A DNA stretch of 31,713 bases from Candidatus Parcubacteria bacterium (GTDB taxonomy: Bacteria; Patescibacteriota; Minisyncoccia; Phycocordibacterales; Phycocordibacteraceae). Of this stretch, positions 11,289 to 16,122 are shown one piece after another (within the stretch, counting starts at the first letter, position 1; every line of letters starts with the position of its first letter). Position numbers and translations under genes: made by a program. The notes below the pieces were generated by a model. The model saw only the letters and a list, made by a program, of their open reading frames with translations, was not told where the DNA came from and made no database searches. The DNA lies in NCBI GenBank assembly GCA_027310925.1, contig DAICZX010000028.1, positions 1 through 31,713 of the forward strand, read 5' to 3'.

Positions 11289-11583
11289 AAATACGTTGTA
11301 TATATTGAAAACGCAAAAACCACGAAAGTGGTTTTTGCGTGCTTTTCTAGTCGAACAGGGGCGCCGGTACTGTACCGACTTTGACGGGGAACGGTACTGG
11401 CTCCTGGCGTCACAACCGTGTTGCGGGAGGCGGTACGGTACCCGTCACTGCAAGCAATCTAAAGGTTCTTTCGCACTCTCTCTTCCCTCTTTAGCGACGG
11501 GGCCGGTATAGATCAGTTTTGAGATGATTGAAAGGTTTCCAGCAGGTTTTGAACGACGAACAGGAGAAGCGGTACTGTACTAA
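11289..11583. repeat. Cassette junction A (arm type 1, core 11404-11424, arm type 3)
   Basis: 11289-11427 matches 14347-14485 at 124/139 positions. 11428-11583 is a diverged copy of 12687-12845. Confidence 0.9.
11311..11340. terminator. Terminator hairpin in junction A
   Basis: Perfect 13-bp stem ACGCAAAAACCAC / GTGGTTTTTGCGT with a GAAA loop. Confidence 0.8.
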
Positions 11584-11594
11584 AAAATGCTACG

Positions 11595-12551
11595 TCACGA
11601 ATTACCCTCTTCACCTTGAGCCATCTGCGTGTGCCACGCTTCTTCAAACGAGGAACGAACTTCTTTCTGAAGGTTTACTTTCTCATCCTGATTGTCAGAA
11701 CTGAAGTAACGTTCAACAAGGACATCAACTTTTTCTCGCTCAGCGGAATCACGTAATACCCCAAGACATGCGAGGACTCTGAGCGAGCTCTTCCCAAAGG
11801 TCGCTTCAATGGCTTTTAGGGAAAATAGACTCTCGGCAAACTGTCCGCGTTCGAAATCATCCATCACTTCTCTTACAGAAATCCCTTTAGTCGCCGCCAC
11901 TCCTCTAACAATTTTAGAAAAAACATCATTATACTGCGCGTACCCATATTGAAATCCCTCAATATCTTTGTTGGCGATGCCGAGTTCCTGCTCAAGTTCT
12001 TCCTTAGTCGCCTCTAGAATCCTGACCGCCATGTACTCCGTCACGATCTCATTAAATCCCGTGAGAGCCGCACGACCTTCTGGTTCCTTCCATGGGGACG
12101 CAAGCTGATAACCGATCCGTGCAGGAACCGTTCCGTGTTCTTCACTTCCGAAGAACCTATGCTTTGATGCGCGGTGGGTCATTTCGTGAATCAGAGTATC
12201 CAGCAAGTCAGCTCCGCCATGATGTTTGTTCTTATTTACGAAAATCGCATCGTCAAATGCGGAGGCGAAGCCATGATCGACACTATTCCCGAGTCGCTTT
12301 TCATACGCTTCGGCTGACAGCATGTGAATCTTCTCAGAAGGTATCGGTGTGTATGGAATACCGAGATTAGCGAGACGACGCCGCAACAGATCATTTGCCT
12401 TATCAATATACGCATGATCTTCTTCGGTTTTCTCCTCTTCTCCCTCGACAGGCGCGGCAGATTCTTTTGCCCACCTTTCCAAAGACTTTTCCGCTTGAGC
12501 CAACTCCTCCTCGCCATAGGCTCTACCAATGAATTTGGGTCCTTTCTCCAT
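11595..12551 (-). CDS. Putative zinc metallopeptidase (cassette cargo)
   Basis: TLIHEMTHRAS (HExxH) plus a downstream FNEIVTE third-ligand motif. Start MEKGPKF lies 8 nt after a TATACT box. Confidence 0.7.
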   Translation of the reverse strand: MEKGPKFIGRAYGEEELAQAEKSLERWAKESAAPVEGEEEKTEEDHAYIDKANDLLRRRLANLGIPYTPIPSEKIHMLSAEAYEKRLGNSVDHGFASAFDDAIFVNKNKHHGGADLLDTLIHEMTHRASKHRFFGSEEHGTVPARIGYQLASPWKEPEGRAALTGFNEIVTEYMAVRILEATKEELEQELGIANKDIEGFQYGYAQYNDVFSKIVRGVAATKGISVREVMDDFERGQFAESLFSLKAIEATFGKSSLRVLACLGVLRDSAEREKVDVLVERYFSSDNQDEKVNLQKEVRSSFEEAWHTQMAQGEEGNS

Positions 12552-12558
12552 ATGGATG

Positions 12559-12845
12559 AAGTATAGCTTGATTCTCAAAACGCAAAAGCCGCTCTTTCGA
12601 GCGGCTTTTGCGTACGTGATGCCGAGCGGTACTGTACTGGTCCCAACGGGGAACGGTACTGGTTCCTGGCGTCACAACCGTGTTGCCCGTGTCGGTACTG
12701 TACCCGCCACCGCAAGCAATCCAAAGGTTCTGTCGGCTCTCTTCTTCCCTCTTCGTCGACGGGGGCCGGTATGGGTCGGTTTTGGGATGATTGAAGGATT
12801 TTGGGCGAGTCCCGATAAGCAAACAGGCGGGGCGGTACTGTATTA
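12559..12845. repeat. Cassette junction B (arm type 2, core 12666-12686, arm type 3)
   Basis: 12559-12639 is identical to 14167-14247 (81 bp). Contains five CGGTAC-type boxes and the 21-bp core. Confidence 0.92.
12580..12613. terminator. Terminator hairpin in junction B
   Basis: Perfect 15-bp stem ACGCAAAAGCCGCTC / GAGCGGCTTTTGCGT. Confidence 0.85.
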
Positions 12846-12847
12846 AC

Positions 12848-14161
12848 TTATACAACAGACTGTAGTTCATCAATCGCATTTGCAGTCTTTGCGATCCGAT
12901 GCATTTCATTTTCGCGAAAAAACGGAACGGAATGTCCCATCGCTATGGCGAATTTCCTGTGCTCCGGTGTATCGGACACAAGCCCAGCGCCGAGAGAACC
13001 TTTGTGTTCTTCACGTTGAGTTTTCGCTTTCTCGAGAGCAGAAGTTTGAAACATGGCTGGATCGTACATGCCCACGACTTCAGTCGAACGCACTTCAGGA
13101 GGTAGAGGAACTCCGTCGCGCAAATTTCCTATGATTTCTGCGATAGCTTCTTTTTTCAAAGCTTCCTGCTCCTTACTCATGTTCTTAGATATCCCCTGTT
13201 CAGCCATTCGTGTATCCACCTTATCCATAAACGGTTTCTCTCTAAAAGTAGCAGTACGAGCGTAGGGGTTCGTAAGAAGATTGTAGAGACCGTCGAGCGC
13301 AAATCCTGCTGGCAATTGCCATCGCTTCCTCGAAGTCGGGAGATCACTCGGCCCTACAGGAACATCAAGACGAACATTTAAGAATGGTTTGATGTCGCGT
13401 TCGTCTTGAGACTGCGTGGCTATCCCGTCTTTCAAAACCTGTGCTGCGGTTTCGGCTGCAAGGCTTCCACCCATCGAGAGGCCAGAAAACAGCACATCGG
13501 TTTTCGCGCTTACCTTATCCGCAGATAGAACAGAATCGACAAAAACAGCATAGGCCTTGCCGAACTGTTCAAACGCATGATCGCCGTGCATTGCTTCTAC
13601 GAACTCATCTGATACCGATCCATATTCATTCGATGGAGAACCGAGTACGTAGAGCTCGTCTGATTCAGGATCTCTTCTCTCAGAAAGTGCTTCAAGCGCG
13701 CGTGGCAAACGTGCAACGACCTGATGCATCACTTCTTCGAAGAAGCAGAATTGATTGCCATTTTGAGGGTTCAAGAATGTCCCGAAAACAAATTCTTTTT
13801 TTGATTTCTTCTCAGCCCCAGCATCTTCAGCTTCTTCTCGATTTTTCTCCGCAGCAGGAATCTTGTCAGAGGATTGCTGCAATTCTCGTGCAATATCTCC
13901 CACGCGGACGACTGTCCACGGGAAAGATGCGCCAACTTCTTTTGCTTCAAAAACAGCACTGTTTCGAATACCTTGCTCAGTGAGCGTTTCAAATAGGCGC
14001 CTAACGGTCTCTACTGATTCGAGATTAAGGTTATTCTCCTTTGCATATTTTTCAAATGCCGTGATTGCGTATTCTGCATGATGAGTGAGTATCTTTTCTC
14101 GTGCATCGAGAGCAGATTCTTTCTCACTCGATGTAGTAGGTTTTGGGAAATTCTCTTTCAT
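12848..14161 (-). CDS. Putative alpha/beta-hydrolase, lipase-like (cassette cargo)
   Basis: FSGLSMGGSLA (GxSxG nucleophile elbow), with candidate Asp (GMYDP) and His (MGHSVP). ATG lies 6 nt after TATACT. Confidence 0.65.
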   Translation of the reverse strand: MKENFPKPTTSSEKESALDAREKILTHHAEYAITAFEKYAKENNLNLESVETVRRLFETLTEQGIRNSAVFEAKEVGASFPWTVVRVGDIARELQQSSDKIPAAEKNREEAEDAGAEKKSKKEFVFGTFLNPQNGNQFCFFEEVMHQVVARLPRALEALSERRDPESDELYVLGSPSNEYGSVSDEFVEAMHGDHAFEQFGKAYAVFVDSVLSADKVSAKTDVLFSGLSMGGSLAAETAAQVLKDGIATQSQDERDIKPFLNVRLDVPVGPSDLPTSRKRWQLPAGFALDGLYNLLTNPYARTATFREKPFMDKVDTRMAEQGISKNMSKEQEALKKEAIAEIIGNLRDGVPLPPEVRSTEVVGMYDPAMFQTSALEKAKTQREEHKGSLGAGLVSDTPEHRKFAIAMGHSVPFFRENEMHRIAKTANAIDELQSVV

Positions 14162-14166
14162 GCTTC

Positions 14167-14343
14167 AAGTATAGCTTGATTCTCAAAACGCAAAAGCCGC
14201 TCTTTCGAGCGGCTTTTGCGTACGTGATGCCGAGCGGTACTGTACTGACCCTGATGGGGGTCGGCACTGGTTCCCCTCCTTCGCCAAGGCTACGGACGGG
14301 CAATGCTGGCGTCACAACCGTGTTGCGAGAAAAGGAGTCGAAC
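14167..14343. repeat. Cassette junction C (arm type 2 with a 32-bp insert, core 14306-14326, degenerate tRNA 3' fragment)
   Basis: 81-bp identity with junction B; core CTGGCGTCACAACCGTGTTGC; GGAGTCGAAC at 14334-14343 corresponds to the tRNA T-loop. Confidence 0.88.
14188..14221. terminator. Terminator hairpin in junction C
   Basis: Identical to 12580-12613. Confidence 0.85.
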
Positions 14344-14346
14344 TAA

Positions 14347-14485
14347 AAATACGTTGTATATGCTGAAAACGCAAAAACCACTTTCGTAGTTTTTGCTCGC
14401 ATTTCTAGCTGAACAGGGGCGCCGGTACAGTACCGACTTTGACGGGGAACGGTACTGGTTCCTGGCGCCACAACCGTGTTGCGGG
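14347..14485. repeat. Junction D (arm type 1 plus core 14462-14482 overlapping the tRNA-fMet 3' end)
   Basis: Direct repeat of 11289-11427; the core ends inside the tRNA acceptor stem. Confidence 0.9.
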
Positions 14486-14769
14486 GGTCGGAATCGAACC
14501 GACGTCTGGAGGTTATGCTTACCACTACAACTTTCGTTGCTCTTGCACATTTGATTTGTGGTCTGGACTATGCCTTCACCCACGAAGGGTGTCTACCGTC
14601 TAGTCTCTACACCTTCCCTTCTCCTTACTGAGAAAGGCTTGGCTCGGTATTGCCGTGCGCTTATGGGCGCGAGGGTTTCACCGAATTTGGCAGATGATCT
14701 TATGCGCAATTACTCGCGCAAACGCCCGAATTGTTCAAGCCTCCCGAGGTACCTCTCCTCTACCCCGCT
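14479..14769 (-). tRNA. tRNA-fMet (CAT), intron-containing
   Basis: 5' exon 14769-14738 (AGCGGGG TA GAGG AGAGGTA CCTC G GGAGG CT) and 3' exon 14517-14479 (CAT AA CCTCC AGAC GTCGG TTCGATT CCGAC CCCCGCA A) form a full cloverleaf. The 1:72 mismatch and A11:U24 pair indicate the initiator. CCA is not encoded. Confidence 0.92.
14518..14737 (-). ncRNA. Group I self-splicing intron (220 nt, no homing endonuclease)
   Basis: Inserted after U33 and ends in G. P/Q/R/S-like elements AAATTCGGTGAAACC, AATACCGAGCCAAG, GTAGAGACTAGACGG and AGGCATAGTCCA; P7 GACTA/TAGTC. Confidence 0.9.
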
Positions 14770-14776
14770 ATTAGAA

Positions 14777-14782
14777 AGTATA
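14777..14782 (-). promoter_or_regulatory. -10 box of the tRNA-fMet promoter
   Basis: TATACT ending 7 nt upstream of tRNA position 1. Confidence 0.6.
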
Positions 14783-14921: not shown

Positions 14922-16064
14922 CTACCGAATGGTTGCGTCATATGTCACTGCCGTGGCTGCTTCAAGTTTTTTATGAAACTCGTTTACTTCATTATTGGTG
15001 AGAGTACGTTCAACGCTGCGATACGTAATACGATAGGCATAGCTTACGGCACCCACGCCCAATTTCTTTTCGTTTTGATAGGTATCAATTAGCTTCACTT
15101 CTTCGACCAAATCGCCAGCAATATCGCGTACCAGATCAAAATAATTATTCGGTATGAATTCTTTCCGAACGATAAAAGAGATATCGCGAACAACGGGCGG
15201 ATACTTGCTCACCTCTTTGAAAGCTTGCCCGAGCTTCAACTGTTTCTTGACACGCTCATCACCTGACCATAAAAGCCGGATATCCGGTAGCTCCATTGAG
15301 ATGATGGCGAGTCGCTCAAGACCGAAGCCGAAAGCCCAACCGTTCCATATCGACGAGTCGACGCCAAGGTTATCGAGCACACTCCCTTTCACCACGCCCG
15401 CACCCAACACTTCGACCCATGTGCCGTTACCGTCTTTATCGACTTCCATCTCAAGGGAAGGATCAGTGTACGGGAAGGTGTCCGGGTTGAAGCGATACTT
15501 CACATTCGGACCGAACGCCGCTCTGGCTATATCAGAAAGAACTTTTTTGAGGTCTTCAATGGTGATGATCCCCTTCTCTTTGGGCGCAAGATACCAGCCA
15601 TCAATCTGATGGAATACGTTCATATGCCGTCGATCAATTTCATCCTTTCGGTATACCTTACCGAAGGAGAGCGCCCCGACCGCCTCGCCTGCCACAATTT
15701 TTTTCCGAACGCTCTCTTCTTTAAGCCAGTAGTACCACATCACCGTAGTGTGTGTACGCAACACGTGCGTGTCATTGACAAAATACGAGTCGGATTTTGA
15801 ACGGGCTGGATGGTCCTTAGGGAAGTTGAAAAGATCGAAGACAATGTCCGTACCAATAATTTCAGGTATCTCAATCACATCGTAGTTCTTAAAATCGGGA
15901 ATAGCCTGGATGCGCTGCACGAGCTCATATAGCGGATTATGTGGAGTTCGCGAAAGATCGGGCATCGCCAAATACCGCTTCATTCGCGTTGCCTCTATGT
16001 CCGTTCGTTTCTCCAATTCCTGCTTCAACCGATTTTCTTCGGCCTTCGTTATTTTAATATCCAT
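14922..16064 (-). CDS. pheS: Phenylalanine-tRNA ligase, single-chain type (alpha catalytic domain plus C-terminal FDX-ACB)
   Basis: DHPARSKSDSYF, LRTHTT, GKVYRKDEID..H..VFHQID, FPYTDPSLE and GWAFGFGLERLA motifs, then YPPVVRDISF...YRSVERTLTNNEV (anticodon-binding domain). Start moved to MDIK. Confidence 0.92.
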   Translation of the reverse strand: MDIKITKAEENRLKQELEKRTDIEATRMKRYLAMPDLSRTPHNPLYELVQRIQAIPDFKNYDVIEIPEIIGTDIVFDLFNFPKDHPARSKSDSYFVNDTHVLRTHTTVMWYYWLKEESVRKKIVAGEAVGALSFGKVYRKDEIDRRHMNVFHQIDGWYLAPKEKGIITIEDLKKVLSDIARAAFGPNVKYRFNPDTFPYTDPSLEMEVDKDGNGTWVEVLGAGVVKGSVLDNLGVDSSIWNGWAFGFGLERLAIISMELPDIRLLWSGDERVKKQLKLGQAFKEVSKYPPVVRDISFIVRKEFIPNNYFDLVRDIAGDLVEEVKLIDTYQNEKKLGVGAVSYAYRITYRSVERTLTNNEVNEFHKKLEAATAVTYDATIR

Positions 16065-16122
16065 TACACCATAATGTAACAAAAAAGTAGCTAAAACAAC
16101 AATATTTGCACCAAATTAAAAC

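Follow-up and report, generated by a model that had tools for sequence, protein, structure and literature searches.

Initiator tRNA gene of an ultra-small, Parcubacteria-type bacterium split by a predicted group I intron of the tRNA-fMet family

The stretch of DNA analysed here, called the window below, is 31,713 nucleotides long and comes from a Candidatus Parcubacteria bacterium. A split tRNA(CAU) gene occupies positions 14769-14479 on its minus strand. The 5' exon (14769-14738), which reads AGCGGGGUAGAGGAGAGGUACCUCGGGAGGCU from 5' to 3' on the minus strand, holds tRNA nucleotides 1 to 33, namely the 5' strand of the acceptor stem, the D arm, the 5' strand of the anticodon stem, C32 and U33, and it is identical to the first half of the intronless gene in congeners. 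The 3' exon (14517-14479, same strand; CAUAACCUCCAGACGUCGGUUCGAUUCCGACCCCCGCAA) runs from C34, A35 and U36 to the discriminator base A73, and CCA is not encoded. Between the two exons lies an insert of 220 nucleotides (14737-14518) that ends in G, the omega-G of a group I intron, at 14518. Once joined, the two exons give a clean tRNA(CAU) cloverleaf with a seven-nucleotide anticodon loop, CUCAUAA. Intronless genes of congeners carry the exon-joined stretch GGGAGGCTCATAACCTCC and contain GGGAGGCUCAUAACCUCC across the joined exons (the intronless allele of the genus is CGGGAGGCTCATAACCTCCAG), so the junction U33|C34 can be placed without ambiguity. Seven nucleotides upstream of tRNA nucleotide 1, the hexamer TATACT (14777-14782, minus strand) resembles a -10 element and is a candidate promoter only; a consensus promoter scan called no full promoter on the minus strand.

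The insert matches the Rfam group I family RF00028 at 14746-14544 on the minus strand (58.6 bits, E 1.4e-12, model positions 1-253), the threshold for membership being the gathering score of 50 bits. No credible ORF was found within 14737-14518, as the two overlapping ORFs present there have no Pfam match. In its default mode ARAGORN did not report the split gene, its sole report in the window being a tRNA-Ser elsewhere. With the intron option, the same program found the interval 14478-14769 with a 220-nt intron, naming the anticodon wrongly. A preliminary description of this DNA had proposed a 220-nt, ORF-less insert between U33 and C34 with a terminal G, in a gene that standard tRNA scans would probably miss, and had named a covariance-model search as a check. 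The coordinates, the lack of Pfam matches, the default ARAGORN output and the RF00028 score are all in agreement with it.

The fold was analysed on an alignment (A2) of 25 homologous copies, of which 24 belong to the genus and the remaining one to a different family within the order. For the tRNA, RNAalifold independently recovered the acceptor, D and T arms together with part of the anticodon stem and, for the ribozyme, P1, P2, P3, P4, P5, P5a, P6a, P8, P9, P9a and P9b, while P6 and the pseudoknotted P7 were placed by hand into the consensus structure. P1 (14740-14724; coordinates here and below are on the minus strand) pairs the exon nucleotides G-C-U (14740-14738) and the intron UGA with the guide UCGGGC (14729-14724), according to both the Rfam alignment and RNAalifold. 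U33 (14738), the last exon nucleotide, faces a guide G in all 25 homologues; the P1 helix that had been drawn earlier between exon GCU and intron GGC, with a U-G pair at the splice site, reappears in the alignment. P2 is a hairpin (14722-14701) with a GUAA loop of the GNRA type and compensatory changes in six of nine pairs. The 5' strand of P3 (14694-14689) is followed by the P4-P5-P5a-P6-P6a domain (14685-14612); covariation is strong in P5a and P6a, and P4 and P6 are almost invariant. The catalytic core (14607-14565) is made up of P7, with the 5' strand GAGACUA carrying a bulged A (14607-14601) and the 3' strand UAGUCC (14570-14565), of the 3' strand of P3 (14597-14592) and of the P8 hairpin (14591-14577). 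As P7 is invariant in all 25 sequences, it speaks for conservation only and offers no covariation evidence. A C-G pair of P8 is replaced by U-A in 10 sequences, and a U-A pair of P3 by C-G in four. In the P9 domain (14562-14521), P9 (ACCAC/GUGGU) and a variable P9a are joined by P9b (GCAAC-GAAA-GUUGU), where U-A is replaced by C-G in 11 sequences.

Over the 25 copies, the predicted pairs are held in 96.9% of cells, compared with 34-44% after the 3' partners had been shifted by one to three columns; the figure for P3, P4, P5, P6, P7 and P8 is 93-100%. Compensatory changes were seen in 35 of the 84 pairs, and the observed values were reached by none of 500 shuffles. The pairing rate and the compensatory changes together indicate that the ribozyme fold is under selection. 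The minimum-free-energy fold of the single sequence has a modest z-score of -2.66, and the copy in the closed genome of a congener, G017, scores 48.6 bits with RF00028, slightly below the cut-off of 50. A P10 pairing with the 3' exon was sought and nothing convincing was found. The GUAA loop of P2 and the GAAA loop of P9b could make tetraloop-receptor contacts, if small introns of bacterial tRNAs are taken as the model. The architecture as a whole, with P2 present, no P5abc, and GNRA loops in L2 and L9b, would be compatible with candidate subgroup IC3.

Within the cloverleaf, position 1:72 is unpaired (A1 opposite A72; in congeners A72 faces an A, C or U), and the D stem contains A11:U24. The anticodon stem consists of A29:U41, G30:C40 and G31:C39, with two consecutive G:C pairs against the canonical three; this au/GC/GC stem is a natural initiator variant found in alpha-proteobacteria and some mycoplasmas (PMC5389676). 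One other tRNA(CAU) is present in the window's assembly, on contig C54; it has G1:C72 and lacks an initiator-type anticodon stem. The same intron is present in G017 (993,452 bp), where a full ARAGORN scan gave 46 tRNAs besides the split gene. The sole uninterrupted tRNA(CAU) among them is of the elongator type (G1:C72, U11:A24), which leaves the split gene as the only initiator-type tRNA gene in that genome. In a second closed genome, G139, the exons of tRNA-fMet occur in single copy, and no second copy of either exon was found in the window's assembly, in G017 or in G139. The preliminary description had made its argument conditional on this being the only tRNA-fMet; no other was found in the window's assembly or in closed G017. 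Because the window's assembly is 82% complete and in 82 contigs, a second, intronless initiator gene is possible in this particular organism. Given the sole initiator-type gene in G017 and the single exon copy in G139, the dependence of translation initiation on intron removal appears as well supported as sequence allows. G017 also carries a tRNA-Ile(UAU) (G017:C1:498031-498104), and ARAGORN found no tRNA-Ile2(CAU) there; on these grounds AUA is probably read without lysidine in the lineage.

Homologous introns were searched for in one genome per species, about 185,000 species in all, by scanning for the second exon of tRNA-fMet preceded by G instead of CU; since the pattern itself requires that G, the omega-G at the scanned sites is by design. 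Inserts at U33|C34 were found in at least 120 species genomes (loci L046-L165). Among the matches listed, the hosts belong by label to more than 20 phylum-level groups, cyanobacteria included (Nitrospirota, Omnitrophota, Acidobacteriota, Cyanobacteriota, Rhodothermota, Chloroflexota, Pseudomonadota, Planctomycetota, many Patescibacteria lineages and others), the first exon was identified at most loci, and the introns form two length classes, 193-344 and 630-789 nt. An nhmmer profile built solely from introns of the genus matched 98 of the 98 introns extracted from other phyla among the matches listed (E 1e-22 to 1e-64), usually over almost the entire ribozyme. In at least seven cyanobacterial genomes the intron lies between GGGCU and CAUAACC, and the seven cyanobacterial copies among the matches listed gave E values of 6e-30 to 5e-26 over profile positions of about 15-211 of 212. 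Rfam confirmed as group I a cyanobacterial copy (L121, 58.9 bits), one from Nitrospirales and one from Patescibacteria that bears an endonuclease. Canonical initiator genes in other phyla are interrupted at the same site (GGGCU|CAUAACCC), and the intron 3' end GUGGUA(A/U/C)G|CAUAACC is common to copies across phyla. The shared site and the profile matches to all 98 introns listed identify the intron in the window, at the level of sequence, as an ORF-less member of the tRNA-fMet intron family. When a quick tree was built from the final 170 nt, the copies of the genus formed a clade of their own (SH-like support 97), which also holds a 722-nt intron from Patescibacteria and two bins with odd labels.

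Most of the long introns among the matches listed contain, close to their 5' end, an ORF of some 150 codons, and a gene for an I-Ssp6803I-type endonuclease is present in about a quarter of the extracted introns listed. The ORF of a long Patescibacteria intron matches PDB 2OST (E 1e-51), which is titled 'Putative endonuclease' and which we take to be the structure of I-Ssp6803I. Three long-intron ORFs match Pfam PF11645 (E 1e-45), and the proteins are of the PD-(D/E)XK type. The tRNA-fMet intron of Synechocystis, 655 nt with the 150-codon ORF of the homing endonuclease I-Ssp6803I (PMC1995217), fits this long class. The preliminary description had equated the insertion site with that of the cyanobacterial tRNA-fMet introns; homologous cyanobacterial introns do occupy U33|C34, and long introns at this site encode I-Ssp6803I homologues. 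No ORF of 90 codons or more was found in L086 (722 nt), L053 (789 nt) or L112 (738 nt), and these introns, which contain inserts of about 500 nt, gave no tblastn match to the I-Ssp6803I homologues. A PF11645 protein, as an endonuclease acting in trans, was not found in the window's genome; clear matches were obtained in only 3 of 222 congeners, none of them beside tRNA-fMet. As the copy in the window has no endonuclease, it would not be able to home by itself.

Within the genus, a homologous intron is present in 33 of the 222 species genomes, the window's included (75-96% identity), and in most of the remaining genomes the two exons are directly joined. The introns of measured carriers are 205-252 nt long and so leave no room for an endonuclease gene. 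Identity to the neighbouring phenylalanyl-tRNA synthetase (PheRS) was used as a proxy for relatedness, a rough one only. By this measure, the nearest genomes include carriers (G072, G086 and G111) as well as intronless species (G142, G230 and G172), which points to a patchy distribution compatible with repeated loss or transfer. Many carriers have the other PheS type, and only the two closest relatives have the upstream PheRS gene next to the tRNA. The PheRS of the window (14922-16082, minus strand, 386 aa) has a class II core and a C-terminal ferredoxin-fold anticodon-binding domain (PF01409 and PF03147). Enzymes of this type (at least 60% identity) occur in about 55 of the 222 congeners, and the others have 33-41% identity over the core alone; there are thus two PheRS types in the genus, and PheRS is not a clean marker of relatedness.

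A different group I intron, about 250 nt long, interrupts the same initiator gene in two congeners (G007, L021:1501-1820; G093, L220:1368-1645, minus strand), with Rfam scores of 61.8 and 69 bits, respectively. It lies after U36 (exon ...GGCUCAU | GUGAA...AAAAG | AACCUCC), and in its P1 CAU|G is paired with CGUG. One gene within one genus thus houses two unrelated introns, at U33|C34 and at U36|A37, sites three nucleotides apart. In G009 the exons lie on separate contigs, which may be a third case.

The 3' end of the tRNA (its last 20 or so nucleotides plus downstream sequence, with the core CACAACCGTGTTGCG) occurs four times in the window, at 11411, 12673, 14313 and 14469 (within 11404-14499), against 0.02 occurrences expected by chance. 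These repeats delimit three units, 1262, 1640 and 156 bp long, on the downstream side of the gene and agree with an earlier suggestion that the tRNA serves as a docking site for cassettes. In G005 a similar repeat of the 3' end is found 3 kb downstream of the gene. Elsewhere, group I introns above the Rfam cut-off were found at G139:C1:450304-450520 and 150608-150852 and at G003:C1:642231-642508, and the intron mode of ARAGORN gave candidate split tRNAs in G017 at 556775-557036 and 709780-710357. A weak group I match on contig C75 of G000 (118-412, L002; 34.3 bits, below the cut-off) directly precedes a segment of 23S rRNA (model positions 2656-2912) and the 5S rRNA, and is probably an intron located towards the 3' end of the 23S rRNA gene.

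The first tRNA-fMet group I introns to be described were those of cyanobacteria, which reportedly self-splice in vitro (Biniszkiewicz, Cesnaviciene and Shub 1994). Paquin et al. (1997) reportedly found the tRNA-fMet intron to be sporadic and the tRNA-Leu(UAA) intron to be vertically inherited. The intron in the window resembles the cyanobacterial tRNA-fMet introns (Synechocystis PCC 6803, Scytonema, Dermocarpa) in host gene, in its U33|C34 site, in a ribozyme homologous over almost its full length, in its sporadic occurrence among related species and in belonging to a family with both ORF-less and ORF-bearing forms. Unlike the Synechocystis intron, it resides in a Parcubacteria-type ultra-small bacterium, in an initiator with an au/GC/GC stem, and has no endonuclease gene. 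It shares with the tRNA-Leu(UAA) intron of cyanobacteria and plastids the group I type and the anticodon-loop location, but differs from it in gene and in site, the latter being U34/A35 in tRNA-Leu(UAA). Introns in the tRNA-Ile(CAU) of Azoarcus and the tRNA-Arg(CCU) of Agrobacterium, reported by Reinhold-Hurek and Shub (1992), are group I introns of subgroup IC3. Like these, the intron in the window is small (about 200 nt), ORF-less and located in the anticodon loop of a bacterial tRNA, and it appears, from its helices, to share a P2 and the absence of a P5abc extension. Its P2 and P9 GNRA loops could dock as they do in the Azoarcus structure. The Azoarcus intron follows U36, its exon ending in CAU, in contrast to insertion after U33 in the window; the intron of G007 and G093 has this Azoarcus-like site. 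Group I introns in tRNA-fMet or tRNA-Ile2 have been found to account for missing genes in 36 genomes, and tRNAscan-SE 2.0 is described as not designed for their detection (PMC8450103). A study that closed CPR genomes also noted that some tRNAs carry group I introns and are hard to detect (PMC8172020). Both the type of element and the annotation gap are therefore already published; what is new here is the host lineage and some detail.

Taken together, these results make it very probable that the initiator tRNA gene is interrupted by a group I intron that is functional and belongs to the tRNA-fMet family, and we infer that it is spliced. The gene would be transcribed as a precursor of about 290 nt, in which the intron is expected to fold into the usual P1-P9 core with the P3/P7 pseudoknot. 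An external guanosine would attack after U33, held in the U-G pair of P1, and the freed exon would then attack after the terminal G at 14518, so that GGCU is joined to CAUAA and a normal seven-nucleotide anticodon loop (CUCAUAA) results. That this happens without protein help is a step we take with somewhat less confidence. Many group I introns need proteins in vivo, and with P10 weak or absent and a fold z-score of only -2.66, the ribozyme might be inefficient alone and rely in the cell on an RNA chaperone, a co-opted synthetase or a maturase-like factor; the term 'self-splicing' would then be an overstatement. We regard such a requirement as unlikely, as the core is complete, two GNRA loops could give tertiary contacts, no intron-encoded protein is present, and cyanobacterial members of the family reportedly self-splice in vitro.

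Two other readings concern the gene rather than the ribozyme, and both seem very improbable to us. The unassembled 18% of the genome could hide a second, intronless initiator gene, with the copy in the window a decaying pseudogene whose intron is no longer spliced, and the neighbourhood of the gene, a hotspot for inserted cassettes, would suit such decay. It is difficult to reconcile this with exons identical to functional-looking intronless genes of congeners, with helices kept through compensatory changes across 25 species, or with the closed genomes, where the split gene is the sole initiator-type tRNA (G017) or its exons are single-copy (G139). By comparable odds, the host tRNA could be an elongator tRNA-Met or a lysidine-modified tRNA-Ile2, whose anticodon is likewise CAU, given that its anticodon stem lacks one of the three canonical G:C pairs and that group I introns are known in the tRNA-Ile(CAU) of other bacteria (PMC8450103). 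However, the 1:72 mismatch and A11:U24 are both present, the site and the intron family are those of canonical initiator genes in other phyla, a separate elongator-type tRNA(CAU) exists both in the window's genome and in G017, and G017, reading AUA with tRNA-Ile(UAU), does not need a tRNA-Ile2. A functional intron in an initiator tRNA is the reading that we prefer.

A more speculative idea, to which we give little credence, is that in these ultra-small bacteria the intron is more than a tolerated parasite and acts as a gate on translation. If the sole initiator tRNA matures through a ribozyme step dependent on guanosine and Mg2+, its supply would track the guanine-nucleotide or energy state of the cell, and all protein synthesis would follow. 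The conservation of the fold through many speciations without an endonuclease, together with the sole initiator gene of a closed genome, is compatible with this idea.

Our knowledge of how group I introns work is unchanged by the finding. As the gene escapes ARAGORN in default mode, and as tRNAscan-SE was by its authors' account not built to detect introns of this kind, initiator tRNA will seem to be missing from genomes of this lineage, which lowers their apparent completeness and invites wrong ideas about translation in CPR bacteria. The sequence matches suggest that the intron of tRNA-fMet, with its I-Ssp6803I-bearing forms, is spread across more than 20 bacterial phyla and is not a cyanobacterial curiosity, its apparent host range being far broader than the cyanobacterial one in the literature consulted. 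The split gene further indicates that, in a genome of 0.6-1 Mb, an essential single-copy gene can rely on a ribozyme for long stretches of evolution.
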